A DNA stretch of 64,000 nt from Picochlorum sp. SENEW3 (taxonomy: Eukaryota). The notes under the pieces were generated by a model. That model was not told the DNA's origin. It ran no database searches and saw nothing but the letters and a program-made list of their open reading frames with translations. This document shows, in pieces, positions 3,164 through 49,261 of the stretch. How positions within the stretch are numbered: the stretch's first letter is position 1; every line of letters begins with the position of its first letter. The position numbers were made by a program, and so were the translations under genes. The stretch covers positions 186,001 through 250,000 of the forward strand of contig CP120458.1 in NCBI GenBank assembly GCA_034226945.1, read 5' to 3'.

Positions 3164-3344
3164 CCATGATGCTGGCCTTGTTTGTTCAATAGAAGCATTA
3201 ATTGCATCAAATATCTCGTGTACAGCCAAAATATTTGTAATAAAGTCTCGAAAACGTGTAAGACTGCAAAATAAAGTTGTTATTGGACACATGCAAGCAT
3301 AACAAGACGGTTTCTCTTGGAAGAAGAAACTTGGCATCCAAACA

Positions 3345-4070: not shown

Positions 4071-4106
4071 ACTTGTATGTATTTGTTTGATATGCTATCT
4101 GTTCAA

Positions 4107-19980: not shown

Positions 19981-20579
19981 TAGGCTTGGGTCATCGGCAT
20001 AGCGAGCTCCCGGCATAGCGGCTCGCTATGCCATAGTCTATGCTATGCTATGCCGTTTCTTTTGGCCCGATATGCTATCTCAGAAGATCCTCCGATCGAA
20101 AGATGGGCTTAGTAGGAGGGTGAAAGAAGGCCATCTCCATGCTGCCCAACAGAATTTGAACTGCACTTCATCGAATCATCTGATTCGCTGGGTGAAAATG
20201 TGACATTGCAACGATCTTGATTGAATCCAAGAGCATGCACCAGGACAGTCGAAGGTGAAGAATTTTATTGATCAGGTTGGCATAACTGCCTACAGCCATC
20301 CACCTTTGGTTGGTCGTTAGAAACACTTTTGTAGCGGGAATTGTGTCTGGATCCTTGTCTGTGATATATATGGTTACTAATTGCATCTAGAATACGTTTT
20401 CAAAACAAATGGAGGCCCTCTGTGGCAGAATCAAGGCAAATATGCTGCAACTACGCTCCAGCATATCGATTTCGTGACAGTTGTGCCCATCAAAGGGGTC
20501 CTTTGACCCATCAATATGTTGAAAACGGCATATCATGCCGCTATGCCGTTTTCACCTTCCAGCATATTACCCAACCCTA
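19981..20579. mobile_element. Non-autonomous hAT-type DNA transposon (599 bp)
   Basis: Imperfect TIRs TAGGCTTGGGTCAT / ATTACCCAACCCTA (12/14). Perfect 8-bp TSD GTCAATTC at 19973..19980 and 20580..20587. Subterminal GGCATAGCG/CGCTATGCC motifs at both ends. Confidence 0.88.
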
Positions 20580-20580
20580 G

Positions 20581-23019: not shown

Positions 23020-23646
23020 ATGTCCTATACACGTCACGCCGTTGCATTGACCCTTGCTCTCCTGGGTGTATGTGCCGACGCCCGCACGATGGGAATACTC
23101 ACGTATGTTGTCTTGTGTCTCTTGTTTGATGATTCGCTATGTAATCTATCTTATGATCGCATATTGTGCAGGGACGAGACCCTTCCCGGGATGGCTCCCG
23201 GACCCATATTGAGTGAACCTACCTTTGCAGTAAAAAGAAATACGTCTCTGAACGCGACTTCAGCCCAAAGATTCAACCCGCTAAACTTACCGGACTACGC
23301 ACAGTTCGCATTGAATGATAAATCTTATGGGAACTACTGCGGGAGAGACGTCGGTTCGGGAATACCCATCAACGATCTCGACGAATGCTGTGAAGACCAT
23401 GATAGGTGTCATAAGGGCAACTGCTACAGAAATTCAAGAAATTGTAGATGCAACCAAGCTTTCAGGTCCTGCGTCTCCAGAGCGAAGAATTCTTGCAGAT
23501 GGTGGCAATATTTCACTTCATATTGCAGTAATGCCCGTGCCATATATGATTATGCTGATAATGCAAGGAATGGTGCGTGTTACGGTGAGGTGACGAATGG
23601 ATTCTTTTACTTTGTGTGTGGCGGAGAATGGGGCAAAGGCACCTGA
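23020..23646 (+). CDS. Secreted phospholipase A2-like protein; probable in-frame intron 23103..23171
   Basis: Signal peptide, Ca2+-loop YGNYCG, catalytic DLDECCEDHDRCH, Cys-rich. Confidence 0.85.
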   Translation: MSYTRHAVALTLALLGVCADARTMGILTYVVLCLLFDDSLCNLSYDRILCRDETLPGMAPGPILSEPTFAVKRNTSLNATSAQRFNPLNLPDYAQFALNDKSYGNYCGRDVGSGIPINDLDECCEDHDRCHKGNCYRNSRNCRCNQAFRSCVSRAKNSCRWWQYFTSYCSNARAIYDYADNARNGACYGEVTNGFFYFVCGGEWGKGT

Positions 23647-23807
23647 TCTTTTACTATCCAAGGTGGCAAGTAAGTGTTCTATCTGCCTCTGAACAAAGTA
23701 CCACTTGCTCGGAGTGCTGAGGGACAAAGGCAGACCTGCATGCATTAACATATTAGTTCATGAGCGACTAAATTTTACGCTTTTAAACCGTGTACAATAC
23801 ATATTTT

Positions 23808-23913
23808 ATTAATATATAAATTTCATTGAAAAGTGGTAGGGAGAGCATCAGAGCAGAGGCTGATGGACAAGACTATGGAGATGAGTGTGAGCTGCTGTGG
23901 TTTTTTGCACCGG

Positions 23914-23958
<45 letters not shown>

Positions 23959-24750
23959 CTGAGGTGTTGAGCTTGCATTGTCATCATGTCAGCATGAATT
24001 CTCTCGTTACTATTAAACATAGAGTTGCATTCAAGAAAGAAGAATACTAAATGAAGAGGCCCTCGTGTGGCGTAAATGATTGTCCTGTAGCGTTGCATAT
24101 ACACTGGCAGACATTTTGTTGCATGTAGTGGCCTCCTGTTTGACCGCTACGTGATGTCAACTACGAGTGGTCTTTCATTACTTTATCTTATGATCATACC
24201 TAGAATGTAAATATTAGTAGCGTCAAAGCTTGATAATGTACTCCATGTGTCCTCTCTTCTCTGAAAAATGTCAGCCAGACCAAGGCATCTGCAAAATTTC
24301 CAGTGATTCTAGCCTTCCACATGCCATATTTGTGAGAAAATATCAATTTATGTATTCAGAAAATGCCTCTACTACGAATTTGGCATGTTGGTTTTGAAGA
24401 ACTCTGGTCAAAGTTGAATCTGAAGATTTTGGAAATTTTTGGGCAAAATTGGCCGAATAGAACTCTCAATTCATGGTATCGCTTCAAAACTATATAATGG
24501 AGCTATTTTGATTCTCGGGAACATTGCATCCATCGGCCTCCTGATTGGTACGTATCCTGAATGATGGTCTGGCCCTGCTCTGCACTTCATTGCAGTTCTG
24601 GTTTACTGCAGCAGAGAGTCAATTCAGGGGAATCCTCTCGATGAGATTCTTTGCGAAGTATCATGATACTAAAATTACAATGAGAGAGACCAAGTTGCTG
24701 TATGCAACGCTCTCCTCGGGAGTACTGGCCTTGTTTCCGTTCTCATCTAC
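23808..24750. repeat. ~0.95-kb dispersed repeat, copy A (decayed coding/mobile sequence; copy B ~44473..45425)
   Basis: Colinear similarity by eye, e.g. gcagaggctgatggaca, agagttgcattcaagaaagaa, cctgtttgaccgctacg, gaatttggcatgttggtt, ggagtactggcct. Confidence 0.9.
23919..23954. repeat. (TA)18 microsatellite
   Basis: Directly visible. Confidence 0.97.
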
Positions 24751-25795: not shown

Positions 25796-28700
25796 CAGTA
25801 GTCCGAAAAAAGATAACCCAAATTCACCGGGAACACCTTCATGAAGTGGAGGTATTTCATTTTTGTGATCACTGAACGCGCCATATCTCCCTACCCAGCG
25901 AGAATTAGACCCTCTAGTCTCTGCCACAGGCCTCTACAGGCTCCAATCTATCCATCCGTCCCTAGAATCGACATTCCATGAGATGTCAACAATCGCATCC
26001 TGTCTGTTTCAGTCAGGCATCACCAGATCTAGTCATCTGTCATTAAGCCGATACATCCATGTATTGATCATTCTTTTATTGATTGATATGGTTTAAAAGT
26101 CAAGATAGACTATCTAGATCGCTCATACATAGTTCTGGAGGTGATTTTCTCCTTGCTGCATTTTCAAAATTCTGGTGACATTTTCAAATGGGATCTGTAA
26201 AGAAACGACGCAGTGAATCTGATTCACGTCGCAAGAATAAACATAAAAAGCGCAATAAATCTGGTAGAGAAAATGAAGGGGTCAAGTATCTCGGGCATGC
26301 TGGGAAAGAAGTGAATGTTGTGTTGGGCAACAACGCTTCGCCGGGAAGCATCCGTATCAACATCCATCAAGATCAGAGGGTTTCAAAGAGCTCAACCGTA
26401 GAGCGAGAAGATAGAAGGAAGAGAGCGAAGGAAAGGGCGAGAAAGAAAAGGAAATACGAGTCTGCAAAGGGACAGGAAAGGCTTCAAAAGAAGGCCATGA
26501 AGAAAGCTCAGAAGAGAATAGAGAAAAGGCGGAGAAAGTATGTCAGACAAACTGGGAATGATGTATCATTGGATGAATTTAAGAGTCTGGAAAAGACCGA
26601 GAAAGAGCAAATGGCCCAAAGGGGGAAACAACAGGTTGACCCCAGCAGTGGGATGGCACCAATATCTGCATATTTTCTCCCCAGAGAACCAGAGGAAGAG
26701 GAAGAAAACACGGCTGCTTCAAGCCAATCAAACGTTGATATCGTTGTTAGAATGTTTAAGCAGTTATTACCAGGTGATCGTGAAGAAAGGACAGAAGATA
26801 CATTGCCTCCTGAGACTCAGTCAGAGGAACATAATAATAGCACTGAGACGAGATTGATGTATCTCCGTCTCGCATATCTGGATCGTCGTAAGGTTAACAA
26901 AATGAGGAAAACTCCAGCAGCAGACTTCATACGAAAGACTGATCTGATTGGACCTGTTTTCATTGAGGGAATGATTGGCCGAAGCATCGCTAAGATTGAC
27001 CAGTCTGAGTTTCTCAAATTGAGTGATTTTGACTTGAGGAAAGCAGGAAGAAATATTGGCCGTATGAAGTTCAAATCTTTGAAAGATTCTTTGATTGACG
27101 CAGAATGGAAAGTTGATGTGAAATATCTGTCAAAGAGAAACAGAAAGGGAGATAACAATGCCTGGACACCCGAGCAAGTCAGGCTGATCATTGACGCTGT
27201 GGAGGGACGAGAAAACTCATTTATGGGAAAAGGTAAGGCACGGAGTTTCAATCAGGCAGCCTCTTATCTAAAGGAAACACTTAAGAAGAAAGAAGGATTT
27301 AACTGGGATACCATCAACAAAGAGAAAGTCAAATATGTTTACAGGAATAAGGATCAACTCCTTTGCCCATCAACCAAGTGCAAGCGAGGTAGACCCACAT
27401 TGCTTTCTTCAGAATGTTTAGAAGCTATTGAAAAATTTGTGCACGAGACGCTCGACGGCAAAATCAGTTACAGACTGAGCTATTACCTTGATCACATGGA
27501 AAGGATTCTTCAAGAATTCAAGGAAGATGAGCTTTTTTATGATGCTTGCAGAAACCCAGACATCTACCTTCGCACCCTCATATACAAAAAAGGAGGGGCT
27601 ACAAGAAAAGTAACAACATATGGAGGCAAAGATTTATCTGACGAGGAGAGACTCTTGAATACTGAGCAAAATTTCCAGCGCCTTGCATTCCTTGTCCAGA
27701 AGTATGGTCTACACAAAAACGACGTGTACAACTTTGATGAAACAGCTGTAAGGTTTCACGAAGATGCAAGTGGCACGGTAATTACACGCAGAGGAAGGAA
27801 AGTAGTCAGAGGGGAAGCTTATGAAGGATCTCTAGATCACAGACTTTGCTGTACATTCATTCCAATGGTCAGCTGTGCTGGTGAGAAATTTGATCCTGCC
27901 GTCATATTCAAGGGAACAAAGATGCAAACAGGAGCTATACCAGGCCATAAAGAAGATTTTAAGACTTGGCAGGAATTATATGATGAGGAAGGGGAAAATG
28001 AGATCTGTTTCATGCAAAACAAAGGCAAGTGGTCCACCAATGATACTATGGTCCAGTGGTTCAAAGAGCATTTCATTCCACGTGTTCATGTGGCAAAATC
28101 AAGGAGAAGATTGCAAGGAGAAATCGTATCTAATAAATATGTCGTTATCCTCGATGGCGTGAGCACCCACTGCCTCTCACAGAAAAGTGGGACGACTTCT
28201 TGGATAACAGAGCTTCAGGGACATGATCCTGATCTGATTTTACTTTGGCTTCCTCCCAACATGACGGGTGATCTACAACCCTTGGATGTCAATTTCAATA
28301 GACCTTTCAAATCCAAATTCAGGCCTATATTGGCAACATTAAAGAAGAAGAGGAGGGATATGGATGAGTCCAACCCACAGGTGGACAATACTTCAAGGGA
28401 AAATTCAGCTGCTTATAAATTGAAGGCTGTCGTGATCGAGGGGATTATAAATGCATACAAAGAAATTCCAGAAACTCAAATTGAAAAAGGATGGACAAAG
28501 GCTGGCAAGTATGTATATGAGGATAATGACAAGCCTCATGATGGTTCTGGCTATTACTCAGCATGGGACACAGACACCCAAAATGATGCTACAACTCAAT
28601 ATGCCGCAGGGACATTGTTTCACCAAGGTATGAGTGGTGGTATATCGGACATTGGGGGGAATTTACGATTCATTCCCAAGGCTGGAAGGAAGAAGAAACA

Positions 28701-29108
28701 GACCACAGAGGAAGAAACAGACCTGGACCCCGAAGATATGGAGGAAAGCGTTGAAGAGACTGAGGCACCCACTCAACAGTTTTCAGAATATGGGACCTCG
28801 GAGTGTCCAGATGAATTTGTTGATGAAGAGACCGCTGAAGATATGATAGTTGACCCCATTTCTGATTGAAGCACTTGGCCTGTGGGTGGTGGGGGGGCCA
28901 TATGGCATCTCATACCCAATGACGGCCCCATATCGACTCGAAATCACTGGAATCGATATAAGATCCCTTTGTATGACTTCTACTAGGTCTACTTCGTTTA
29001 GAAACCTACAATTTGATGCAAATAAACGAATTTTGTGATTTGGGTTATTTCATTTTGGACTACCGGCACCACCAACAAAAAGCGGAGGTATCTTTTTTCG
29101 GACTACTG
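25796..29108 (+). mobile_element. pogo-like (Tc1/mariner superfamily) DNA transposon, 3313 bp
   Basis: Perfect 20-bp TIRs CAGTAGTCCGAAAAAAGATA (25796..25815) and its reverse complement (29089..29108). Left flank TA, right flank CA. Encloses a DDE transposase ORF. Confidence 0.92.
26188..28869 (+). CDS. pogo/CENP-B-like DDD transposase (893 aa)
   Basis: KRGRPTLL linker, VYNFDETAV, PAVIFKG, VVILDGVSTH and LPPNMTGDLQPLDV..NRPFK. Basic N-terminus and acidic tail; ORF uninterrupted. Confidence 0.92.
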   Translation: MGSVKKRRSESDSRRKNKHKKRNKSGRENEGVKYLGHAGKEVNVVLGNNASPGSIRINIHQDQRVSKSSTVEREDRRKRAKERARKKRKYESAKGQERLQKKAMKKAQKRIEKRRRKYVRQTGNDVSLDEFKSLEKTEKEQMAQRGKQQVDPSSGMAPISAYFLPREPEEEEENTAASSQSNVDIVVRMFKQLLPGDREERTEDTLPPETQSEEHNNSTETRLMYLRLAYLDRRKVNKMRKTPAADFIRKTDLIGPVFIEGMIGRSIAKIDQSEFLKLSDFDLRKAGRNIGRMKFKSLKDSLIDAEWKVDVKYLSKRNRKGDNNAWTPEQVRLIIDAVEGRENSFMGKGKARSFNQAASYLKETLKKKEGFNWDTINKEKVKYVYRNKDQLLCPSTKCKRGRPTLLSSECLEAIEKFVHETLDGKISYRLSYYLDHMERILQEFKEDELFYDACRNPDIYLRTLIYKKGGATRKVTTYGGKDLSDEERLLNTEQNFQRLAFLVQKYGLHKNDVYNFDETAVRFHEDASGTVITRRGRKVVRGEAYEGSLDHRLCCTFIPMVSCAGEKFDPAVIFKGTKMQTGAIPGHKEDFKTWQELYDEEGENEICFMQNKGKWSTNDTMVQWFKEHFIPRVHVAKSRRRLQGEIVSNKYVVILDGVSTHCLSQKSGTTSWITELQGHDPDLILLWLPPNMTGDLQPLDVNFNRPFKSKFRPILATLKKKRRDMDESNPQVDNTSRENSAAYKLKAVVIEGIINAYKEIPETQIEKGWTKAGKYVYEDNDKPHDGSGYYSAWDTDTQNDATTQYAAGTLFHQGMSGGISDIGGNLRFIPKAGRKKKQTTEEETDLDPEDMEESVEETEAPTQQFSEYGTSECPDEFVDEETAEDMIVDPISD

Positions 29109-33221: not shown

Positions 33222-36200
33222 TCATGCCATGTATCCTTGCTCCAATGTGGCTGCTTGAATAATAGAAGGCAGTCTTGCATTTATCAGTTTTGAAGCTTGT
33301 TCTCCGCATCGATTCATCAGAATATGGGCAATAGATTTGGATTCTGTACAAAGTAGAGGAGCGGGTGTCGTATCTGCTTTCTGGTTGATGAGCGCTGACC
33401 AACGAGATGTTCCCGTCCTGATGGCATGCAATTCGATAGCCAAGGTATTGCTTATTTTGCTGTCTTGCCTTGAATCAAGAGCCTTTAAAATCGCTGACAT
33501 TGCAGTCCTTGCTTCACCTCTGCTTTTTTCAGATTCTTTCAGCTTCTCGTCGAGATGTTGAATTGCTGGCGCCAGGAGTTTCTGCAAGTACTGCTCTGAA
33601 ACCATGATGTCATTTGTCTGAAGGCACTTAGCTGCCATGTATGCCATACGCAGCTGTTTATATCTATTTCTGCAGCAGTCTTTCGACCTCAATTTCCCTT
33701 TTCTAGAAGCCGCAGCGCATGAAGCAACAGATGTAGCAGCACATCCAGCTGCAAGTGCACCAGAAGCAGTATTCCAGATAAAATCCTCTCTGGTCTCGCC
33801 ACTATTAAGCAAGATTGACACGACTGTAGTGAGCACCAAATCTTCCATAGCATCCCAAGGGAACATCAGAACCTTTCTCGCATTCTCCACAGTGGTGGAA
33901 TCTGGCTTCGCCTCTGGCTCCACGGCAGGCTGTGTCGTGCTTGGTCCCTCGTGGACAGTGTCAACCTTTCGAGGTCTCCCAACCTTGCCTCTCTTTGGAG
34001 CCTCGGGAATGTTTAGCAACATCTGCTGCTCTAACCATACAGCTTCTGCTTCAGCTCTACGCTTCTCCTCTTCTTCAGCGGCCCGAATCTGCTCTGTGTA
34101 TGCCTGGTTTGCTGTCATCTGATCCCAATCTGAGACAGCATTTGCCTCTTCATCATCATCAATGTCAGCCTCCTGCAAGACAATCAAACACAATCAATGA
34201 CGTTAGCAAATCTATTATCAGAAGAGTAATACGTTGTACATCGCTGAAATCACCCATTGACGCACCCTTTCTTCCTCAGCCTCTTCAATGGCCTCAATGT
34301 CAAATTGCTCCACTTTGTATGCAGCTTCCATCTCTGCTGTGAGAGCATCTTTATCTATTTTTCCTGAGTAATTTTCAATAAATCTGACAGCATATCGCTC
34401 AATTGGCCGGAGAGCATTATCGAGGGCTTGCATCGGGTCGTGGGATTGGTCATCCAGATGTGCCATTCTCACAACTTCCTTCATGACTTCATCGTCCTCC
34501 TCTTCTTTTGGCGCTGTCTGCTCAGTATTGCCCTCGCTATCCTCTTTGCTCTTTTCTTCCTCTGAAGGTGCCACTGCAGGAGGAATATCACGAGTAAACT
34601 CTTCCATCTCAGCAGCAGTCTCTTTTTCTGCGGCAGCTGCAGCCGCAGCATCTCCCTCATCCTCAGCAGCCCGCATAGCCTCTTTCCAGACCTCTTGATC
34701 TTCCGTTTGTCCAGAAGGCAAAAGAGTCTTATTTATCTCCTCTCCATACAATATATCCGTTGTAAAACCTCCAGATTGTATTGCCAAGAAGTCTAGTTCT
34801 CTTTTCTGATCACTTTTGCGCAAGATGTTCTCCTCAATAGTGTGCTCACTAATCAAGCGATAGATGTGTACCTCACGGGTTTGGCCAATCCTATGGCATC
34901 TATCCTGCGCTTGCGCATCCATTGCTGGATTCCAGTCGGAATCATAAAAAATAACTGTATCAGCACCGGTAAGATTCATTCCTACGCCGCCACTTCGTGT
35001 CGAGAGTATGAAGCAGAATATCTTTGGGTTTGTATTAAACCTTTGCATCAGCATTTGGCGAGCTTCTGGTTTTGTTGCTCCATCAAGCCTGACATATGTA
35101 TGTCCATGAATATTCAAAAATGCCTCTAAAACGTCAAGCATTTTACTCATTTGGGTGAAAATGAGTGCTCGATGTCCTCCAGATTTGAGCCTGGTCAGCA
35201 AGCGAGCAAGCTCCTGAAGTTTCCCACAGTCATACTGAATCAATCGTTTATCTGGGAAGAACAGTTGCTGGCGAACCCTTGGAACATGCAGCAAGGCAGT
35301 AGATGAGGTAAATTGGTTCCAAAGATGTTCTCTCTTCGCAATCATTTCAGTGATTGATACTGGCTGCGGACTTCCAGAAACGAGCTGAGGCATGGCTGAC
35401 CTTGCCTTTGGTATGACAAAAACAAAGTTTTTTAGAATACTGTTCATCTCATTTGATCGGTCCTCTGGAAGTTTGACTGCATTCAATAAATTGGAAGATA
35501 AGGATAAAGCATTTGGATGATTCCATCGCTCGTGAATGCTGACAGGATGAGATACAATGCATAGCTCAGAGCGCAAACTTTGACCAAAGGCTGTCGGCAG
35601 CTCTTTCATTCTGGACAAACTCAAGTCCCCTAGACTCTTTGCTCTGTCTTTCCTCCACTCTTTTCTCTTTTGTGCAATATCTCGCAGAAATTTGGATACA
35701 AGAGACAGTGATTGAGCAGATGGGGTTCGACCTAGGGATCCCAACAATGACACATGTGCACTACCAAGAAGGGCAAATAAATCCTCCTCTGCTGTTGTTT
35801 CTGGCTCCAAAAAGGTGTTCTTTTCCTCAACTAGCTCGAGAGCATCTTTTTCCCAGGAGCACATCTCGGATGCGTCCTTCAAATGCAGGATTTCTAGTTC
35901 CTCCCTGGAAATTCGAAGTGCATCCTTTATCACGAGTGAAGGCATCCTGATCTCTAGCCCATCCATATCAAAAGCCGAAATGATGGGCCGACCTTCGAAC
36001 AGATCTGGATGATTACATACTTTCCGCAGCTGCATCAAACAGTTCATGATTCCCAAGAAATTTCCTGAGGCAAGGACATTCCTGGTGTCTGATTGGGACA
36101 CATATTCCTCGTAGAGCTGCCTTTGGCGCTTTGAAAGCCTACACTTGATGACATGCTCATGCTTTGCAGGAAGCTGTTTTTCGACATCTTTCTTCAAGCG

Positions 36201-38615
36201 TCTTAGAAGGAAGGGGCGCAACACTGAATGAAGACGGTGGACAATCGCCTTGTTGTACTCTGCAGATCCCTCAACCATTCCTGTCAATGGATTTGAGAAC
36301 CAATCTTTGAATTGGGCATGAGATGCGAACACTTGAGGCATCAAAAAGTGCATCAGGGACCATAACTCCATTAAATCATTTTGCAGAGGTGTACCAGTGA
36401 TGAGAAGCCGTCTCTTGGAGTTGAAATTCAGCAGTGTTTGCCACCTCTGGGATTTCCAATTCTTGATCATATGCGCTTCATCTAGAATCAAATACTTCCA
36501 TTTCTTGCGACGAAACATCCTAGCGTCCTGAAGGATCAGAGTATACGAGGTAATGCACACATGAAAGGCATTAGGTTTGGACCAGCCCTGTCTCTTTGCT
36601 GCCCTTTCCTTTGGAGTTCCGTAATATGTCAGCAATTTGAATGCTGGACACCATCTCTTAAACTCCATTTCCCAATTGAGCATGACCGAGGTTGGAACTA
36701 CGATTAAATGAGGGCCCCAATCTCCACGTTCACATGCAAGCCAGGACAAGAGGGCAATGGTTTGGATCGTTTTCCCTAAACCCATCTCATCTGCCAAGAT
36801 GCCATTCAGATGCTTGTGATATAATGTGACCAACCAGTCTAATCCAATATGCTGATATTCTCTCAACTCTCCCTTCAGCAAGAACGGAATTGGCGTCTTT
36901 ACATTTGCTGTCGCAAGAGTGTAACCAGTTGGCTGGGCAGCAGCCATTGCCTCTAGAGCACCAGACATGCCTGTGTTTTCCTTCTCATCCTCTGCATTCT
37001 GTACGCTTGTTTCTAGACCTTTAATATCCTGTCTGTCATTGTATGTCTGTGGTCGATATCCTTTATATTTGGCCAGCAGCTCCTCCAATGGCAAGTCAGC
37101 ATCCTCTTTTAAACCAGCTGCCTCTTCTGCTTGCAACTGGGTAAAGCTCTTTCCGCTCTCTGCCAATGCCATCCTTTCTTCCTCTTCTAACGTTTCTTCA
37201 TCATCTGCATCATCATCCTCGCCTGACCGATACTCATCCTCTTCCAAGTCCACAACAATATTGTCTTTTGTAAGCATTTCTAAATCGCTTTCCTGATTCA
37301 GATCCAAATTTTCACTCATCTGGTCCTCACTGTTGTGTAACTCTGGCTTGTAACCTTTGTACCGTGCCAACAAATCTTCCAAAGGAAGATGGGCATCATC
37401 TTCAAGGCCTGCTCTTTCTTCTGCATGCACCTGAGCAATATCTTTACCACTCTCAGCCAAAGCCAGTTGCTCCTCCTCCTCTAGAGTTCTTTCGTCATCA
37501 GCATCATCGTCCTCATCGCTTTTATATTCATCCTCATCCATGGGATCTACTGCATCTTGTACGTCTATATCGGGCAACTCACTAAATTCTTCAGCTAGTC
37601 TTCTACCTCCATTTCTAGAGGATACTAAGGGTGCTGACGACTGTCGAGACGGCCCAGCTTGATCAGAAAGTTTTGCACGCTCCACAGGATATCCATATCG
37701 CTCCAGCAATTTCTCCAGGGGAAGCTCGGCATCCGCTGCCAAACCAACATTCTCATCCATCTGCTCTTGACGAAACTTTTCACCAAACTCAGCTGCAGCC
37801 ATCCTCTCTTCTTCTTCCAGGGTAGCCTCATCATCGGCATCATCATCCTCACCACTCCGATAGTCCATACCATCATCCTCGTCCATGTACTCGTTCTCTG
37901 AGAGACCATCCTCACCAGTGACACCACCACCAGCAGTCGTACCTTGTGACACATCTTCAACCTGGCCTGCCATGCCATTCTCTCCCCTCAACCTCTCTGC
38001 CAACAAGATGCTATATTTATGAGTCTGCTTCAACAGCACATCCATCTGTTTATCCAACACTTGCTTCTTCCTAGCATCAATCTCATTCTTCACCTTGAAT
38101 GCAACCACTTTGTGTGCCTTGTTCCATAAAGCCATCACCTCCTTTGCAATCCACGCAGCCCTCTTCCTCAAGTTCTTTTCCTCCTCCTTCTCCCGAAGAA
38201 CATTGCGACTCTCTACATCCATATTCGACCTCTGTGCACTCCCAGCAAGCCTCTTCGCACTCTGTATCTTCCACCGCCTCTCCTTTTGAAATTCCTTCGC
38301 CAACCATGACATTTCCTGAAGCATATTATCCCAATGCGTCTTACCCCTCTTTGGCTCTGGAGCTGCAGGAAGCCTCATCTTTGACACCTCCTGCTTGATC
38401 CTCTCAGCTCTCCGCAACACCTTATCCTCCTCCTCCATTTCCCGTTGCAGATGATACTGCAATTCTTCAATCGTCCATTTCTTCTGGATCACCGCATCAC
38501 CCTGGCTCTCATCAAAACCACCATCTTCTTGCTTAATGTCCACCACCTCCTCCTCCTCTTCCTTCTTCAGTGCCTTGACACTCGAGGACTCTGGACCACG
38601 TCGCCTCGCACCCAT
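33222..38615 (-). CDS. PIE1: SWR1/PIE1 SNF2-family chromatin remodeller; intron 34173..34265
   Basis: HSA domain (KTHWDNMLQEMSWLAKEF), NGILADEMGLGKT, LILDEAH, split ATPase with insertion, [23 protein letters not shown] and a SANT-like C-terminal exon. Confidence 0.95.
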
Positions 38616-40867: not shown

Positions 40868-43189
40868 TGGCACACACTGGCTATGATTTCCTCCGTTTCT
40901 TACTTATTGAATCCACAATAGTCAATGTACTACAACTGTTTTGATAATATGGGGCTGGTTGCGTTTGATTTGACTGTCTTCTCCAGACCATATTTTAGGA
41001 CAGACTCGGGGTACATTCAAACGTATGACATCTGCGATGAACTTTTTTGTTCGATTGATAGCATGTCGAATTTCATTGGAGCCATGTATTGCTTGGGCAG
41101 GTATTCTTGAAGAAATGGGCCTTCTCCAATCGTCAGAAGGCCAGGTGGGATGCTTTCAGATTTAGGACCAGTCATCAGGGTGGAACCATTCCATCCACTG
41201 TCTTAAATGGCGATTGGTCCCACAGGCCGATTGAGTAGCTCCAGGATCATTGGAGGTACGAAAAGATTGCCATGGTTCCATCAAAGATTTTGCGATGTAC
41301 AGATTATACTCTGTAGAATGTGGCGAAAGATGCTGATAGGTTTCTCCCATCGTCCGGGTCTGTGATGGGAAGGTAGAATATATCCCTAAATGACATGCCT
41401 CTGATTTGACCACGGGTTCAAAATACTTATGTTGAATCGATTCCATATGGATCAGCATGCTGACTGCGCAGTCTAACTTAAGACCGACGAACTTTTTTAA
41501 ATATGTAAGAAATCTCGAATCGACCCCGGTTGGTCCTAATTAGGACCACCAGGTTGGCAAACCGTGGATCCAGGTACAAAAGGTGCTCCAGATCCGGAGC
41601 CTACATACATAAATCGCATAGCCCCCAATGGACTGCACCATTTCCATATATTCTCTACATGGGTGCTCTTCTGGCTACCAAATATAATGGATGAAAATGG
41701 GCAAAATTTGCGTCGCTGGAATTGTTTGTTCGACCCAGGGGGTTTCTGAGGTATGGAAGAGGCCTTAAATAAGACCATCAAGAGGCTCGACCAGGAAAAC
41801 GTCCTTTCGCACCTCGTGACCGTTCAATAGCGACTTCAATGCTTTGGAATGTCCACCTTCGAATTGAATTTGTCAACCGATGCTTCTCCAGCAGTGCTCA
41901 TGATTATTCGTGCTGGACGGATTCCCGAATGCCCGTACCGTGTGTTGCAGAGTGGGTCAGTCTTTTTGTGTATTGATTGACCATTAATGGAGCTACAGGA
42001 AAGGAGAAGGGACATTAGACTGTCCATGACTGTCGTCTGAGATGTATATGACGTCGTCCTCTTCATAGCTCGCGTTCAAAGGATGATCTACCCCATGCTC
42101 AAGATAAAAAAGGAGGTATCTCCACTGTGCAAGTGTGTCCTCCTTGTGTGGCACGTCTTCTGGCTCTTAGAGTTCCAACAGTACTTTGGATTTGATTCCC
42201 TGTCGTGATTGAATCTGTACCCCTTCGTATAGGTCGTTCTGTCCTGTAGTTCACAGTAAAGTCTCCATCCTCCTCTCATTTGGAGTTCCACATGACCAGT
42301 CTTACAATATCAAACACCACTATGAAAAGGCTACATCTTTTAGCATAAACATTCCAAGTATCAAACAGTCACTGGAACGTCTCTCTGTAAAGTGTCATCT
42401 GGTCAACTCATCACATCATAGCAGCACGTTGACTCTCCTGTCACAGGTGGTGTTCAGTCAACCCTTGAGGTCAAGGTCGACTATCGCGAATATTAGTAGC
42501 AATATCTTCCTCGTCTTTGAGTCTATCAGTAGGTCTTTAGGAAAAAACATTTTGTTATTTCATCTTCTTGTCATTTCGTCCACCAGAAGAAGCCACAGTT
42601 CAACTTGGTACAATCAGAAATTCGTCCAAATCACCGCATTTCCACCTTCCGCCAGTCCCCGCGAGACGAGTTTTGGACCATTCGACGCAGAACAGGCTTC
42701 TTAGTCGAATTAGGCCCTCGGAATTAATTAGGCAGGCACAGGCCCGGCAGGCGGCGAATTAGGCCACAGTGCAGATTCGGGATATAAGGAGCCCCAATAA
42801 GACCATGTAGAGAATCGACCAGGAAGCATCATGATGATCATCTTTCGCACCTTTCGTAACTCTTCCAATAGAAATTTTGATATCCTGGAATATTCGAGAA
42901 CAAAGGTGCTGCTCCCGCTGTGCTGAATGTCACTGTTATTCATACTGCATGGTTTGCCGGTAATGCCTGTCCACTCGTACCGTGAAATTTGTGGTCCATA
43001 TCAATAGTGCAAATTGGTTGCCGTCCACAGGAGCGTTTGACCCTGGAAGGTCATCCAGATGCTACAAGATGTCCGCTTCACACACAAAATATAACAAATG
43101 TATGGTTGAAAATAGTCTTCGTCATATGTTTCGACTGTATATTATATTAATCCGCCTACCGAAAACATACATCTCCAGAAGGTGTAGTA

Positions 43190-44119
43190 ATGCATTGTAC
43201 AACCGTCGTCTGTATTTGGCTAGTTTTCCAGACTACCAAGGCTTTGTACACTGATGCCCGCAGACAAACAGACAAGCATGGTGACGTCACCAATCTGCCC
43301 ATAAATAAAATGAATCGGAATACGTCAACATCAAAAAACTTGTTACAAGACGGTGCTTGTGCAATTGTGGACGCATTCGAGCAATTTACTCAACAATGCA
43401 CATGGGGCCAAAACTGTGGCGGAGGATGCGCCCAGTACGCAGATTCTGGCATTGAAAAATGGAATGACCCACTGGACAAGGCATGCTTGGATCATGATAT
43501 TTGTCTTTGCAATGCAAAAACGGTTGCACAGAAAAGATATTGCGACAGAACACTTGCTGATGCTGCACGAGAAATATTCGAAAAAAATGATAAATGCACA
43601 GGATGGAATGTTTTGAATCCATTTTGCTGGGAAGACCCCATCGTGTGTGCCGCTCAAAACATCGTCATTGCAATGGAGGCATTTGGAGGCTCTGGGGATG
43701 ATTTGAATAGCAATTGTTATAATAATCGGAGCCCACAGCCAGAACCACGCCCCGAATCACAGCCTGACCCAAATTTGCAATCTTGCCTGGCAAAGTTCAA
43801 AGGAGGGTGCATGTTTGATGAAGATGCAGGGATCGAAACTTCAAATTGTGGAATAGATTGCTCAACAATGTCATACAGGGATGGTGAATACTATGGTTAT
43901 GTGAAGGACGAGTCGAGCAACATATACCCTCCAAGCAGGGCAGACCGTTGTTGCTGGGAGCATAAGGTATATCTTCACCAGCAAAATGTTTTGGATGGCT
44001 CTAAACAAGCTTGTGAGTCTTATAATCAAATGCTTCGTTGTATGATTTCAAAGCAGTCGTCTTGGGGACAGGCAATGACACGAGAAATAATGGCTTGCCT
44101 CGGTTGTCAAGGAACACAG

Positions 44120-44180
<61 letters not shown>

Positions 44181-44452
44181 CACAACGAGAAAGATGCGAC
44201 TATGAATATTTGAAAGAGTGGGCTCCAGTATGGGGAAATATTTGGGGTAAGAAGTACAAGAAAGTATCCTCTCTGTCAACCTGTGCAAAGCTCTGTTGTG
44301 ATAGTCCAACGTGTAATACATTTGATTGGACTAAAAAGAAGAAAAGAGGTGACAGCTATTGTTATCTTTTCAGATATTCGTGGTCAGAGTTGCCCAAGAG
44401 GAGGAAGAAAGGGAATCGATACGGAACGACTTATGTCGGATATCTAGTATAG
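43190..44452 (+). CDS. Secreted multidomain PLA2-like protein: PLA2 + degenerate PLA2 + (PE)10 linker + PAN/apple-like domain
   Basis: WGQNCGGG..DPLDKACLDHDICLC; second domain SNCG..ADRCCWEHK; C-terminal SLSTCAKLCCDSPTCNTFDW..CYL. Confidence 0.75.
44120..44182 (+). repeat. (CCAGAG)10 coding tandem repeat (Pro-Glu linker)
   Basis: Directly visible. Confidence 0.97.
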
Positions 44453-44472
44453 GTGAAATTTATGCATAGTTA

Positions 44473-45425
44473 ATTTATATATAAATTTTATCGAAAAAAT
44501 GGCAGGGAGGGCATCAAAGCAGAGGCTGATGGACAGGTCTGTGGAGATGAGTGTGAGCCAGTATGGTTGACTTTTCTGCTCTGGGTGATGTATCAGCTGA
44601 GGTGTTCAGCATGCATTGTTCTCATATCAGCATGGATTTCTCTCGTTACTAAGCGTAGAGTTGCATTCAAGAAAGAAGAGTAAGTAGTAAATGAAAAGAC
44701 GCTCGTGTGGCGTACATGATTGTTCTATGGCGTTGCACATGCATTGGCAGACATGTTGTTGCATCTATAGCGGTCTCCTGTTTGACCGCTACGTTATGGT
44801 TGCCAACTATGAGTGATCTCTCATTATTTTAGCCTATGATCATACCTGGAATGTAAATATCAGTAGCGACAAAACTCCATAATGTACTCTATGTTTCCTC
44901 TCTTGTGCTCAGGAAAAGTGCCAGTCAGAGCAAGGCATCTGCAACCTTTCCAGTGATTCTTCTAGCCTCCCTCATGCCATATTTGTGAGCAAAGATTAAT
45001 TTATGTATTCAGAAAGACTGAAATAATAAATAGAAAATACCTCTTGACGACGAATTTGGCATGTTGGTTCTGAGGAACTGTGCTCAAAGTTGCGTAAAAG
45101 TTTTGGAAACTTTTGAGCAAGACTGTCCGCATTGAATTCCCATTGCATAGTACTGTTGAAATATTATATAATAGCGCTTTTTTCTTCTTGGAGAACATTC
45201 ATTGGCCTCTTGATGAACGTGAGTCCTGAATGATGGCCAGGCCCTGTTCTGCACGTTCTTGCAGGTCTGGATTCCTGCAGTAGAGAGTCCATGCAGGAGA
45301 TTCAATCCCATGTGATTCGCCGCAATGCGTCATGATAATAACGTTTGAATGGCAGGGACCAGTTTGCTGCATGGCTGATGCAATCCTCTCCTCAGGAGTA
45401 CTGGCCTGGGTACCGTCCTCAACAG
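44473..45425. repeat. ~0.95-kb dispersed repeat, copy B
   Basis: Same orientation as, and colinear with, 23808..24750. Confidence 0.9.
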
Positions 45426-46488
45426 AACAACAAGGTGATACAGCATTGTAGTGACACAGCATGGTCGCCACTGAATGTCGTTGGGCGTCTGCCACTTGCT
45501 TCATGGTATGATATGATGCGTTTGATGCCATGACAAGGGTAGAATGTGCTTTACGGAGACCTTGGATTGGACGTGGCCATGGTGTGTTGTCCTGTTGTGA
45601 TGCCATGGCTTGACTCAGCAGTTTGGACAAGTTCACCTTGGATATGTGCTTGTCTGGGCTATATGATCGATGTAGTGGATTTTGAGATGCCTTATAGGTG
45701 TATGGAACGACCACGGATCGAGAGAATTGGCGTATGGAGTCCAACAGCACAGAGTGGAGCTCATCAGTAACAGGAATGTTGGCCCCGCCCTTCCTGTGTG
45801 ACACCTTGTCGTGCTGGATCAGAATGAGAGCCTTGTCCGATGTGAGCACAAGGCGGTTTTTTCATGGAGATACCGTGTCAACGCTATCAATGATGGACAG
45901 CGTCGCGCAATCTGCTCGGAGCGGTGGCTGCATGGTGTACAAGCACAGGGCAAACCATTGCCAGTAGTCAGTGGTGTTCGCTGGGTCGCTGTCGATCCTG
46001 CGTTTGATGGCATCCCTGCGACAGCAGATCTCTTGGAACGTTTTAAAGTCTTTACCTTGGACGTTGTGGGCTGTTTCCTGGGTGGCTTGGATGCATAACT
46101 CGTTGGCTTCCTGTCTCCACTTGTCTGTGGTGGGGTGATGGAGTCCAAGCTCCTTTCTCAGGACGGAAACCACGGGAAGCATTATGGACGACAAGACAGA
46201 TATATTGGTATATGTTCGTTTCATGTAGCGGTATATATCTTCAATCTTGGGTATGAGCCACAAAGAGTGCTGTTGGACCTTGGCAGCATCAATCTTGGAC
46301 CGTTTCTTGAGGCCATGCATGACTCTGTAGAGCGTTTCCAATTTGGTTCTGTACGATCGCACATCCCAAGGATTGTCGACATAAAGTTGTGTTGTTCTCA
46401 TACATGGGGAAAGAGATAAAAATTTGGAAATTTTGCGCACGGTCATTCTGCACATTGCCACGTACGTTGGGAAGAGTGCATCCTGCAA
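45199..46488 (-). pseudogene. Tyrosine recombinase (virophage/PLV OLV11-like) interrupted by one in-frame TGA at 45862..45864
   Basis: ORFs 45862..46488 and 45199..45849 are in the same frame. Motifs LYTMQPPLRAD (Arg I), HDKVSHRKG (Lys), QGLRKAHST (Arg II) and VADAQRHSVATMLCHY (His, Tyr). Confidence 0.8.
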
Positions 46489-46490
46489 TA

Positions 46491-47036
46491 ATGACAGAAA
46501 TTGGATACGAGGACTGCGACTATGTGAGCCATGAGACAGGCTGGAAGTTCTGGCCGAATACTTTCCAACACTGGAGCGTTCCTATCGAGTTACATATTCC
46601 ATGCAGGGATCCAATATCGCATTTGATGTCCATGTGCAACTTCAAACAAAGAAAGTTCAATTGCACAAATAGTCTTGAAGTGGAAATAAAAGGGTGCCTC
46701 CTGCAGATGGATCGGGTCTCATCCAAACTAGTAACCGATTACACAAACATTGAAGCAAAATGTTTTGAAGCCCAGAAAATCGACGAGTACATTGAGTATA
46801 TGAGCAGTAAACTACAGAAGAAGAGATTTCCAGCTGCAGACGTTTTCAGGGCAATGAATGCCCCAAGATCTGAAGAGGACGAATGCATTTGGAAGAATAA
46901 GAGTGCTTTATCCTTCACTGAAAAGTACATGAATAATATGGAATACTATCAGTATTGTATGGCTTGCCTGGGCTCCGAGATGGATCTGTTGAAAGATCTT
47001 TCATCTAGTCTAGATGAAAGATATTGCAGCTCATGA
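46491..47036 (+). CDS. Sulfotransferase-like fragment, apparently 5'-truncated
   Basis: IPCRDPISHLMSMCNF resembles the 3'-PAPS-binding 'RDP..R..S' motif. No 5'-PSB motif or anchor is visible. Confidence 0.45.
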   Translation: MTEIGYEDCDYVSHETGWKFWPNTFQHWSVPIELHIPCRDPISHLMSMCNFKQRKFNCTNSLEVEIKGCLLQMDRVSSKLVTDYTNIEAKCFEAQKIDEYIEYMSSKLQKKRFPAADVFRAMNAPRSEEDECIWKNKSALSFTEKYMNNMEYYQYCMACLGSEMDLLKDLSSSLDERYCSS

Positions 47037-47165
47037 CCCTCATCTCAACATTGCTTTGTTAGACCAAAACCCCCACCATTCTTTCCTTATTGACAAAACT
47101 TATATTGTATATGAGTTACATATCCTCCTAAAGTATTGGATTGTACATCAAATTTATCCAAGAAA

Positions 47166-48566
47166 ATGTCGAAAGTTGCCATGTCAGCCAGAGGACAAGC
47201 ATTCCTTTCCATCTCACCGTGGAAATACTCTCAGCCAAGGCCATGGAAGCAACAAAACTGTCCCATTATTTGCTTTCATGCGAATCCCAACCCATATACT
47301 CCAAGTTCAGGGACGCTGAGTACAGATGGTAATATTCCCGAGGGACATCAGCAATTGCACGAAACATTGTATGATGGGAACGAATCTGCAGCACAGGTTC
47401 ATCAATCCAAGGAAAAATATCGTTTTATTGATGGAGAGGACGATGGATCATCCCTTGTTCCTCTGGGAGAGTTCTTGGCCAAGAGGAGTGGCTCAGAGAG
47501 AGCACCTCCGGTGGGAGTGTACGCAATCTATGATGCTTCTCGAGCTCTTCAGTATGTATCATACTCTAGAAACATTGTGCTGGCAGTGAAGAGCCGTCTT
47601 GAGGCTGTAGGAGAGGAGAAGTGTGCCTTTGTAAGGAATATGGTGTTTGCAAACACTGCTATGCAGACTCGGCAGGCTTTGGAGGCACAGCAATCGAATT
47701 GGATCAATGAGCACGGCACTGTACCACCTGGGAACGGTATAGAAAAGGACATATGGGATGTTCCCTTCAATGTGACAGCCATGTCGGACAAGGAGAGGAA
47801 TGTGTACCATGCCAAGAGGGAAAAGATGGTTGCTGCCATGGGTGAGGTGTCATCATCAGAGTCTTCTTCTGATTCTTCTTCTTCATTGAAAAACGCAGAC
47901 GAAGATTTTTCGAATAGAGAAAGAGCGGCAGATTTGAAATCAGCTGTTGAGGAGAATGATTGGAGTGCCGTGATTGAGCAGCAGACAAGGGAGGCCACAG
48001 GGCAGGAAGAACAAGGTACAATCACAACTCCTTTTGTTGGAGCTCATGTGCATCGGTCGATTGGATCTTCCACAGACGAATTCGTTGAAGAAATGAACAA
48101 GGAAAGTGTGCATGCAGCATTGGATGAGGTTCGCCCTTATTTAATGGCTGATGGTGGAGATGTGGAAGTGGTTGCCGTTGAAGATGGTAGAATATTGCTT
48201 CAGCTGCAAGGTGCCTGTGGCAGTTGTCCTGCATCTTCGAGTACGATGAAAATGGGTATTGAGAGGTGCCTCCTTGCAAAATTTGGTGATCAGGTCAAGG
48301 AAGTGATTGAAGTAGGAGGAGGGGTTGAGAAGATTGAAGCCACAGTGGCAACAGTGGATGCTCACATCAATGGGCTCCGAGGTGCTATTGACGCCTATGG
48401 TGGAGCAGTAGAAGTTCGCGCAGTCAATCCCCCTACCGCAGAGTTACTGTATACTGGACCTAAACCATTAGCATATGGTCTGGTCGCGGCAGTCAAAGAC
48501 AAATTTCCTGAACTGGGAGATATTCGGGTGATTGATGCGGAGACTGGAGAGAAAATCGAGTTCTAA
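47166..48566 (+). CDS. NFU1: Plastid NFU Fe-S carrier with N-terminal GIY-YIG-like domain
   Basis: GVYAIYD..LQYVSYSRN (GIY-YIG-like), LDEVRPYLMADGGDV..LQGACGSCPASS (NFU CxxC) and a second Cys-less NFU domain. Confidence 0.88.
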   Translation: MSKVAMSARGQAFLSISPWKYSQPRPWKQQNCPIICFHANPNPYTPSSGTLSTDGNIPEGHQQLHETLYDGNESAAQVHQSKEKYRFIDGEDDGSSLVPLGEFLAKRSGSERAPPVGVYAIYDASRALQYVSYSRNIVLAVKSRLEAVGEEKCAFVRNMVFANTAMQTRQALEAQQSNWINEHGTVPPGNGIEKDIWDVPFNVTAMSDKERNVYHAKREKMVAAMGEVSSSESSSDSSSSLKNADEDFSNRERAADLKSAVEENDWSAVIEQQTREATGQEEQGTITTPFVGAHVHRSIGSSTDEFVEEMNKESVHAALDEVRPYLMADGGDVEVVAVEDGRILLQLQGACGSCPASSSTMKMGIERCLLAKFGDQVKEVIEVGGGVEKIEATVATVDAHINGLRGAIDAYGGAVEVRAVNPPTAELLYTGPKPLAYGLVAAVKDKFPELGDIRVIDAETGEKIEF

Positions 48567-48685
48567 AGATGGCATGTATTTTTGTTGTTATTATTCGTTG
48601 CATTTGCTAATAATAATATAAGTATATTCTAATGATACGTTCACGTGTGCCCTTGAGGCATCCTTGGGTAGATATATACATCACA

Positions 48686-49261
48686 TCATGGTGGGCTGAC
48701 ATCACCACTAAACACTGTTGCACTTGCTACGGCAGCCCCTGTAGGATCTGCAGCCAGAGCAACGCCTTCTTCAGCATTTGCTACAGCAACCCCTGTGGGA
48801 TCTGTAGCCAGGGCAACGCCTTCTTCATCAATTGGCAATGCTATTGAATCATTCGATCTACTCGCAGTGCATCCACAAGATTCGATGATATTATTTGGAC
48901 TCACAATAAATCCTGCCAGACCAGTCCGACCAGAGCACACACAACTTTCTACAGTGGCCCAATCATACTTGACCAATGCTTGGCAGCAAGCATCCATACC
49001 TAACGGAAAGACAGATAGTGGACACCAAAATAATAAATCAGCCTGAAGAGCTGCTAAATCGACACGTGGAAGGGCATTGCACAACTGTCCTCCATCACTT
49101 GACTCACAGGAGGAACACTGACTCAGGCTCCTCCGCTGATAATGAAAGCTACTGTCCTCACTCTGTTCCGACAGTATTCGCCCAAAAGCACTGTATCTAG
49201 GTGATGCTACGACTAGAAAAAGCATTACGAGGATGCATCTCGTATATTGGTGAGCCAGCAT
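48686..49261 (-). CDS. Secreted Cys-rich protein with two 18-aa C-terminal repeats
   Basis: Hydrophobic leader, RRSL processing-like site, C..C..CC..CxC..CxC pattern. 54-nt-period tandem duplication at 48724..48827. Confidence 0.7.
   Translation of the reverse strand: MLAHQYTRCILVMLFLVVASPRYSAFGRILSEQSEDSSFHYQRRSLSQCSSCESSDGGQLCNALPRVDLAALQADLLFWCPLSVFPLGMDACCQALVKYDWATVESCVCSGRTGLAGFIVSPNNIIESCGCTASRSNDSIALPIDEEGVALATDPTGVAVANAEEGVALAADPTGAAVASATVFSGDVSPP

Follow-up and report, generated by a model that had tools for sequence, protein, structure and literature searches.

A tyrosine recombinase gene with one in-frame stop in Picochlorum sp. SENEW3, a probable copy of a compact recombinase-only mobile element

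Cryptons are DNA transposons that carry a recombinase as their single gene, with no reverse transcriptase (RT) and no long terminal repeats, and one of them, CryptonF-1_cRei, is active in Chlamydomonas, where it inserts by recombination of a short terminal motif with a like target (PMC9977147). The OLV11-like recombinases, found in polinton-like viruses (PLVs), Organic Lake-type virophages, PgVV and Aureococcus anophagefferens virus (AaV), are a divergent group of virus-borne enzymes that Pfam does not detect (PMC4642659). Here we describe a locus that shares features with both systems, in a 64,000-nt stretch of the green alga Picochlorum sp. SENEW3 (assembly GCA_034226945.1, contig CP120458.1, positions 186,001 to 250,000), which we call the window and to which all coordinates refer. 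The minus strand of the window contains a tyrosine recombinase gene that is broken by a single in-frame TGA. This locus is probably a copy, recently inactivated by the TGA, of a compact and autonomous recombinase-only mobile element of ~2 kb that inhabits the nuclear genomes of Picochlorum-like green algae, and our best reading is that the element is Crypton-like in layout and virus-like in enzyme.

On a stop-to-stop map of open reading frames (ORFs), the minus-strand frames 45862..46581 and 45199..45861 are one frame, split by a TGA that reads as tca on the plus strand at 45862..45864. The initial annotation of this DNA had taken the two ORFs for a single broken frame, which the translation confirms, and the four peptides it had quoted (LYTMQPPLRAD, HDKVSHRKG, QGLRKAHST and ADAQRHSVATMLCHY) all occur in P0001, the read-through translation with the stop written as X, whose residue numbers we use throughout. 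Residues 1-400 of the intact relative P0002 align by tblastn with 46401..45202, end to end and at 90% identity, and the gene therefore consists of 400 codons without an intron. Specifically, the recombinase frame occupies 45199..46401 on the minus strand, from an ATG at 46401..46399 (MRTTQLYV) to a terminal TGA at 45201..45199, and has one internal stop; the extent first given for it, 45199..46488, was correct at its end, whereas by homology the start is the ATG at 46401..46399 and not 46488. A word-indexed search returned 21 database proteins at E <= 0.001, with E no higher than 1e-120 for 13 of them, and among the matches are intact proteins of 400-422 aa, two of which are hypothetical proteins of Picochlorum sp. 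SENEW3. Judged from these sequence comparisons, the frame is a genuine gene and no chance frame.

The fold of the encoded protein agrees with the earlier proposal of a tyrosine recombinase. A first model built from 17 sequences was poor, with a predicted local distance difference test score (pLDDT) of 59, and drew Cre, the Tn1549 integrase (Int), TelA, XerA, XerH and lambda Int; a second model, built from 140 sequences, has a pLDDT of 86.6 and a predicted template modelling score of 0.76. Using VIA-align, ranks 1-28 among 48,161 PDB representatives are taken up entirely by tyrosine recombinases, type IB topoisomerases and telomere resolvases. Cre aligns over 263 residues across both domains (model 42..371) with Z 13.9, and further Z scores are 13.7 for XerA, 12.1 for an MRSA integrase, 11.8 for Tn1549 Int and 11.7 for both lambda Int and XerH; Foldseek matches Cre at E 6e-5. 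The model comprises an N-terminal helical domain (residues 38-141, 46066..46377 on the minus strand, pLDDT >90), which is like the core-binding domain of Cre, XerA and lambda Int, and a catalytic domain (residues 142-355, 45424..46065 on the minus strand). The alignments with Cre, XerA, Tn1549 Int and lambda Int start at residues 36-42, and the lambda Int core, XerD, P2 and HP1 Int and type IB topoisomerases align with the catalytic domain at Z 8.5-10.5.

The R-K-R-H-Y set of residues that had been named for this locus is conserved, in order, across the 140-row family alignment. Specifically, the set incorporates, with all codons on the minus strand: Arg191 (LYTMQPPLR, 45916..45918), the proposed first catalytic Arg, which is R in 137 of the 140 rows; Lys228 (HDKVS, 45805..45807; K in 139), the proposed general-acid Lys on a beta hairpin, placed by the model between strands E220-224 and E236-239; Arg312 (GLRKAHST, 45553..45555), the proposed second catalytic Arg, invariant in 140 of 140; His338 (AQRHSV, 45475..45477), which is H in 109 rows and otherwise T, N, S or Q; and Tyr347 (MLCHY, 45448..45450), the proposed nucleophile, nine residues past His338 and Y in 139. 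We propose that these five residues would form the catalytic set of the enzyme. R257 is also conserved, in 132 of the rows. Most tyrosine recombinases carry a His three residues before the second catalytic Arg, and type IB topoisomerases carry an R-K-R-H-Y pentad. In the family described here D, N or Q stands three residues ahead of R312, an arrangement that resembles the topoisomerase pentad. Compared with Cre/loxP, XerC/D-dif, lambda Int and the Tn1549 integrase, the window protein thus has the same two-domain fold (Z 11.7-13.9), the same catalytic order and the same His-to-Tyr spacing of 9, but it is only ~10-13% identical to these enzymes, has no arm-binding domain, has D, N or Q in place of that His, and belongs to a eukaryotic nuclear host.

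Sequence searches reach the same superfamily through more distant relatives. No Pfam family matches the window protein at E <= 10, PHROGs gave one chance-level match only, and PDB sequences gave no match with the single protein and only chance-level matches with two family profiles. An exhaustive profile search extended the family to 1748 cluster representatives at E <= 0.001, with 447 at 1e-10, and Phage_integrase (PF00589) is unmatched at E <= 0.01 in all 96 family members scanned. Sub-threshold PF00589 matches occur in four of ten viral-type relatives, the best being P0267 (E 1.2e-5, 25.5 bits against a cut-off of 27.1), and two of the ten scanned match the N-terminal SAM-like integrase domain; the sub-threshold matches form a sequence-level bridge to tyrosine recombinases.

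The gene lies in a repeat unit with sharp limits. The whole unit, copy A, is a single-gene recombinase element of ~1971 bp (44470..46440, minus strand), and its similarity to five kinds of independent copies starts and stops sharply at 44470 and 46440. Ten metagenome contigs (L008-L017) encode close relatives, and blastn resolves two separate islands, namely the coding part up to 46440 and a block of ~105 nt at the 3' end (44472..44575, minus strand) that is conserved at 75-76% identity in L012, L013, L016 and L017. In these four the sequence between gene and terminal block is unalignable; the corresponding non-coding 3' part of the window element (44576..45198, minus strand) cannot be aligned to L012-type copies, is common to a second copy in the window, copy B, and has indel variants among the copies in sequencing-run contigs. 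The 1971-bp unit has one long ORF, and no repeat family frames it beyond short palindromes.

These palindromes are found exactly where the similarity ends. At the 5' end is the terminal motif GTGCGCAAAATTTCCAAATTTTTA (46417..46440, minus strand), which has inverted AAAATTT/AAATTTT arms, lies ~15 nt upstream of the ATG and is conserved in four independent flank contexts; similarity begins at GTGCG(C/T)AAAATTTCCA.AA.TTTT, and the sequences outside it are unrelated (window, L009, L010 and L012/L013). At the 3' end is the palindrome AAAATTTATATATAAATT (44470..44489, minus strand), our proposed core recombination site. Here similarity finishes at ..AAAATTTAT(A/G)(T/C)ATAAATT(TT) and the flanks of copy A, copy B, the L012 type and L017 diverge directly after it. 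The 105-nt block terminates in the AAAATTTAT..ATAAATTTT palindrome, which is perfect over 26 nt in L012, L013 and L016, and of which a perfect palindrome of 16 nt is left in the window. Each of the two end motifs has only one match in the window, with 0 expected by chance. Both ends thus consist of inverted AAAATTT arms around a short spacer, the layout of the core sites lox, FRT and dif, and they may have a role in recombination.

Other copies of the unit are present, in unrelated flanks. Copy B (23797..24745, minus strand), ~20 kb from copy A, is 5'-truncated and decayed and contains only the part for the C-terminal extension, the 3' region and the terminal block, at which its similarity ends; it matches 44462..45421 at 74% over 1007 nt by blastn, with a mean column identity of 83% in a two-sequence alignment. 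We also placed the contigs of four public sequencing runs (X1, X5, X7 and X17) on 42500..49000. In run X1 the contigs show two variants, in 44931..45264 and again in 45798..46106. In run X5 a contig of 3567 nt is 96% alike over 46470..47870 and its preceding 2168 letters do not lie on 42500..46470, as would be expected of a related genome that lacks the unit here. A single metagenome (contigs PJEL01...; L008, L009, L011 and L015) holds four variants that are 63-91% identical to the window protein. In L017 (176..606) the terminal block and palindrome abut a recombinase gene without its first two-thirds, and the intact L010 gene, 94% alike, has unrelated sequence at that breakpoint; the L017 junction may have arisen by nested insertion or by recombination at the palindrome. 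The ratio of non-synonymous to synonymous substitution rates (dN/dS) of the window gene is 0.31 against L008 (342 codons), 0.22 against L011 (262 codons) and 0.25 against L014 (195 codons), and L008 carries a premature TAA of its own, distinct from the stop in the window. The picture suggested by these comparisons is of an element family kept by purifying selection on its protein, with dead copies scattered.

The enzyme itself points towards viruses of protists. In a library of predicted viral structures (BFVD), nine of the first 13 rows are giant viruses of protists: Hokovirus (3.4e-10), AaV (6e-9), Tetraselmis virus 1 (8.1e-9), Harvfovirus (1.5e-8; rank 4 and the first row to be named 'Integrase') and Pyramimonas orientalis virus (5.6e-8) are among them, together with Hyperionvirus and a 'Tyr recombinase domain-containing protein' of Heterosigma akashiwo virus, and the remaining four rows are three without a name and Virus NIOZ-UU159. 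A protein of Qinghai Lake virophage matches at 2.2e-3, and phage integrases appear only from E 1.4e-4. The nearest viral structure matches are thus uncharacterised giant-virus proteins, and an AaV protein has been named an OLV11-like recombinase (Yutin et al. 2015, PMC4642659), which may be the AaV protein matched in BFVD.

Relatives are also encoded on viral contigs. Scanning viral contigs with the close family alignment only gave no relative, and scanning IMG/VR with the broad alignment gave seven loci (L001-L007). Of these, L001-L003 are on contigs of 16-21 kb with a DUF5906 (D5-type) helicase and a GIY-YIG nuclease, and L006 is on a 25-kb contig with a PrimPol-helicase, an rve-chromo integrase, a SET protein and an A32-like ATPase. 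The contig of L007 is 258 kb long; L004 and L005 overlap and belong to one 26.5-kb contig with the same genes. Calling L001 a PLV by its capsid was considered and not adopted, because ESM Atlas gave only unnamed viral clusters for the candidate capsid ORF. A hidden Markov model (HMM) of the algal clade picks exactly the viral-contig recombinase ORFs among 126 ORFs, at 2.6e-11 to 4.3e-5, and the algal proteins are 16-27% identical to viral-type members. In an unrooted FastTree phylogeny of 140 rows, which is silent on the direction of transfer, the 14 algal proteins group as one clade with support 100; with five metagenome proteins they form a clade of 19 rows with support 99, and all four viral-contig rows fall on the other side, so that the algal clade has no member from a viral contig in this tree. 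Two viral-type relatives gave no tblastn match at E <= 1 in a phage collection. As a separate observation, many K/N-rich viral-type relatives have a conserved C-terminal tail of ~70 aa (..KKYYE.NKD.VLRKKIL.NLN.G....P....I.KY.L.YD.....W; columns 500-628 of the broad alignment), which is absent in the algal clade and outside Pfam.

Supplement file 1 of PMC4642659 prints proteins labelled Yrec(OLV11), among them RED1_13 and SAF1_03. Compared by eye only, RED1_13 resembles P0267, P0179 and the L001 ORF in its N-terminal ..NLDFLK..KV..., in LY..YPLR.DY.N.KII and NYLVV, and in DYKT.K, LRKSYLS and MGHT....Y.K; SAF1_03 looks, again by eye, more distant. P0267, P0179 and the L001 ORF are matched by the algal-clade HMM at 3e-11. 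The window protein and the OLV11-like recombinases are alike in being divergent and undetected by Pfam and in the motif order LY..P.R.(D/E)Y, NYL, (D/Y)K, LR..Y(I/L)(T/S) and M.H(S/T)....Y.K; moreover, the AaV protein is the second-best viral structure match of the window protein, and relatives in the family are found, like the OLV11-like genes, on viral contigs of 16-26 kb with primase-helicase, GIY-YIG or A32 ATPase genes. They differ in that the window gene is alone in a 2-kb unit of a nuclear genome with no viral gene, and in that the algal proteins are a separate and well-supported clade. The OLV11-type kinship put forward in the initial annotation is upheld, though only indirectly, by the giant-virus structure matches, by the HMM matches on contigs of PLV and virophage size and by the by-eye likeness of those genes to RED1_13; the algal proteins have a clade of their own without a viral-contig member.

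The likeness to Cryptons is one of layout. The window unit, like a Crypton, has a single recombinase gene, no reverse transcriptase and no long terminal repeats, and it has no long terminal inverted repeat (TIR); insertion of Cryptons is thought to be site-specific at short terminal sequences, they too are present in a green alga, and their copies are near genes (PMC9977147). In contrast, the ends of the window element are A/T palindromes of ~20 nt and a 105-nt block rather than the 5-nt motif of the Crypton, the element is smaller, and the detectable kin of its enzyme are viral. The domains DUF3504, for genes derived from Cryptons, and GCR1_C mark Cryptons. GCR1_C is named in a figure legend on these elements (PMC9977147). 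No Pfam match to DUF3504, GCR1_C, DUF3435 or RT was found in the window protein or in 96 relatives. The hallmarks of DIRS, Ngaro and PAT elements are also absent, in that there is no room for RT and RNase H in the 2-kb unit, its neighbours are a PAN-domain gene and a NifU gene, and no direct or inverted repeats frame the recombinase gene.

We propose that subunits of the recombinase would bind the inverted arms at the element ends, that Tyr347 would cut and rejoin strands through a 3'-phosphotyrosyl intermediate, and that the element would leave its site as a circle and enter another by site-specific recombination, as has been suggested for Cryptons. Mobility in the present day is, on this model, predicted. 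As other family members sit in algal giant viruses and in genomes of virophage or PLV size, the element may be a free-living form of a viral integration module, or the source of that module. We also put forward, as a speculation that is more probably wrong than right, that the units represent a class of eukaryotic DNA transposon not described before, in which the integration module of PLVs, virophages and algal giant viruses exists in free-living form, with excision as a circle, the 3' block acting as both recombination site and junction promoter, and exchange between alga and virus. In such a junction-promoter model the circle would place the 105-nt 3' block and palindrome immediately before the start codon, in front of which the element otherwise has only ~40 nt, and most of the recombinase would be produced from the excised form.

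The in-frame TGA (45862..45864, minus strand) is residue X209 of P0001 and codon 180 of the gene, and whether it truly breaks the gene bears on our description of the copy as inactivated. In the 17-row alignment, ten of the 15 homologues that cover the stop have Gly at its position (..SPGQNHLVL..), and the codons of relatives there are GGA, GGT (L008) or ACT (L011). At 45864 the contigs of three runs read C in place of A and so encode Gly: 6/6 of X7, 4/4 of X5 and 1/1 of X17. Run X1 matches best, several of its contigs being 100% identical, and is perhaps the sample from which the assembly came; one of its contigs (45798..46106, depth 14) retains the TGA, with its one difference lying away from the stop, and a second, 87% alike, carries a Gly codon at the stop position. 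Compared in this way, the stop looks like a recent point substitution that is private to the window copy, and recent inactivation is the option we favour among those listed at the outset, given Gly in the relatives and TGA in one X1 contig. It is improbable, at the level of a minor alternative, that the gene is unbroken, with the TGA either an error of sequencing or assembly or else decoded, as selenocysteine or by readthrough, to give a full-length recombinase. The frame past the TGA is still open and conserved, the stop column is variable across the wide family (140-row alignment) and falls, in the model, in the loop that joins a short helix to a strand, so that any residue would probably be tolerated there, and some selenoproteins are retained in Picochlorum according to the genome paper (PMC11092101); an error common to the assembly and X1 would be possible if both are the same data. 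However, the same TGA is in the X1 contig, although X1 may be the source sample, relatives use ordinary Gly or Thr codons and no TGA, and Rfam gave no match, either to a selenocysteine insertion sequence (SECIS) or to any other family, within 44300..46700 at E <= 1. Selenocysteine decoding was rejected on the grounds of the Rfam result and of Gly in the relatives.

A different possibility is that the locus belongs to a lineage-specific host gene family, a domesticated recombinase or duplicated cellular gene that does not move, in which case the ends would be promoter or 5' untranslated region and 3' end signal and the copy an ordinary pseudogene. We consider this unlikely, if somewhat less so than an unbroken gene. 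The dN/dS values of 0.2-0.3, which indicate a protein under selection, the A/T-rich ends with the 5' motif only ~15 nt before the ATG, a guanine-plus-cytosine (GC) content equal to that of the host, and sequencing-run contigs in which no transposition footprint is seen would all suit a host gene. It would not explain why a block of 105 nt is 75% conserved far downstream of the stop when the intervening sequence is unalignable, why palindromes are exactly at the similarity edges, or why the L017 terminal block abuts a truncated recombinase gene; the 5'-truncated copy 20 kb away, the independent stops in different copies, the diverged variants in one metagenome (L008, L009, L011 and L015) and the relatives carried by viruses also speak against it. 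The least probable of the alternatives, in our view very improbable, is that the gene is the last survivor of an integrated PLV, virophage or giant-virus fragment, the rest of which was deleted. Its family is found on viral contigs and in giant viruses, and PLVs do integrate into algal genomes (PMC4642659, PMC10120064). Nevertheless, a Pfam scan of 29 of the 33 window ORFs >= 200 aa (the other four are the two recombinase halves, 50..682 and 20507..21175) found no capsid, packaging (A32) ATPase, PolB or primase-helicase, with the proviso that Pfam coverage of PLV capsids is weak, and the window has no set of PLV or virophage hallmark genes within 15-40 kb bounded by TIRs. Host genes are ~18 nt from the 3' end of the unit and ~50 nt from its 5' end, the same 2-kb limits recur in independent copies, the algal clade lacks a viral-contig member, and the GC content is flat (0.42-0.475), with the unit like its surroundings. 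The absence of a capsid, packaging ATPase or polymerase nearby, noted from the start, thus holds for the ORFs scanned. Between the two origins that had then been offered, the sharp 2-kb unit, conserved ends and copies favour a capsid-less tyrosine recombinase transposon, and a relic of an integrated virus is not supported, as the gene fills a sharply bounded unit of ~2 kb.

Several observations nevertheless weigh against a mobile element with a tyrosine recombinase of viral type. The window protein has no Pfam or PDB sequence match; hhalign of the family with Cre is weak (E 0.033), with R191 at ..NTLLRIAEI.. and K228 at the K of ..GRTKTLV.., stretches that hold the first catalytic Arg and the Lys of Cre, and with lambda Int it is not significant. 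The link to the named OLV11 family runs indirectly, through the by-eye comparison and the statement on AaV in PMC4642659. The ends, being A/T-rich, could instead serve as a promoter and a 3' processing signal. In the sequencing-run contigs no excision, circle, empty site or target duplication is seen. One X1 contig of depth 234 joins 46663 to 44566 and so goes back 2098, but we rejected this joint as an element circle since its points differ from the ends 46440 and 44470; a separate locus, where a truncated copy adjoins sequence like the ORF 46491..47036, may account for it. In favour of the element, the summed depth of X7 is higher over 44453..46405 (9,000-29,600) than in the flanks (1,800-4,300), about 3-10x, although this depth sums contigs and is no copy number, and the contig counts overlap (flanks 4-10, unit 6-24). 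Copies in the genome of the window were counted within its 64 kb, where there are at least two.

To our knowledge, the tyrosine recombinase integrases of virophages, PLVs and algal giant viruses are known only from sequence, and neither their sites nor their origin is known. A cellular element of 2 kb consisting of a recombinase and conserved palindromic ends would be a minimal and tractable system, which could reveal the recombination site, integration and excision, and the direction of module transfer between viruses and transposons. It would also add a recombinase-only transposon family to Picochlorum, an alga of biotechnological use, and an exchange of the module between algal genomes and viruses, if true, would explain the repeated gain of integration ability by capsid-bearing elements. 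No paper connecting Picochlorum with a tyrosine recombinase came to light, nor, in the text accessible to the search, one that reports OLV11-type recombinase-only elements in green algae, subscription journals being outside both searches; PMC9356565 reports no OLV11-type or rve integrase in Tetraselmis. The genome of Picochlorum SENEW3 is small and reportedly repeat-poor, with 4.99% transposable elements that are largely unclassified (PMC11092101), and the element family may figure among the unclassified repeats of that paper.

In addition to its two main domains the window protein has a C-terminal extension (residues 356-429, 45202..45423, minus strand) that is modelled as a helix, two strands and a helix with a pLDDT of 58-84. 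The extension is subfamily-specific, being present, in the 17-row alignment, in P0002-P0007, P0013 and P0017 and absent in P0008-P0015, with P0013 falling in both listings. ESM Atlas gave no usable match for it, and it is weakly like a separate small ORF in L012 (pairwise E 8e-4). Downstream of the recombinase gene lies a conserved module of ~230 nt with a small ORF (..LQRKISRLPRGE..WTLY..) that is weakly like (E 8e-4) the extension fused to the recombinase in the window's subfamily; the module has opposite orientations in L012 (2730..2955), L013 and L016 versus L009 (1717..1942), L015 and L017, and is possibly an invertible or shuffled segment. The 5' flank of the metagenomic copy in L012 (325..1272) encodes a retropepsin-like stretch (..VDILVDSGAYLSF..), and this copy therefore lies beside or inside a retroelement.

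The neighbours of the unit are ordinary nuclear genes. They encode an SNF2 ATPase (34218..38615), a DUF4149 protein, a secreted PAN-domain protein (43151..44452), a NifU-domain protein (47115..48566), a DEAD-box helicase and MAM33, and further out are genes for TOG, FHA, an Oxa1-type insertase, PP4R3, Acatn, PUF, a lipase and proteasome proteins. The 29 ORFs scanned with Pfam are identifiable host genes and one DDE_1 transposase. The latter, an open frame of 896 aa at 26179..28869 (plus strand) with a DDE_1 (pogo/Tigger-type) transposase domain at E 1.6e-13, is 1.4 kb from copy B and is a second kind of mobile element in the window. The space between the element and the NifU-domain gene holds an open frame of ~180 codons (46491..47036, plus strand) that has no Pfam match and is divergent from the recombinase, and one X1 contig spans 46378..48574 without interruption.

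The 3' palindrome of either copy is ~20-150 nt from the stop of a convergent gene (43151..44452 and 23017..23646, both plus strand). Both genes encode a Cys-rich secreted protein with a C.DHD.C motif, phospholipase-A2-like (PLA2-like) by eye, and the two proteins are 27% alike over 113 aa (E 0.002). The placing of the element copies beside C.DHD.C genes may reflect a target preference or chance. The protein of 43151..44452 also has a PEPEPE repeat and a PAN domain, and partial Picochlorum homologues carry RNase T2 domains. This PAN/PLA2-like gene was rejected as cargo of a larger island, because the similarity of the copies stops at 44470 and the gene has Picochlorum homologues. The contigs of the four runs leave 42934..44452, with the PAN-domain gene, uncovered and cover both sides of it, and this segment may be strain-specific, fast-evolving, unexpressed or filtered.

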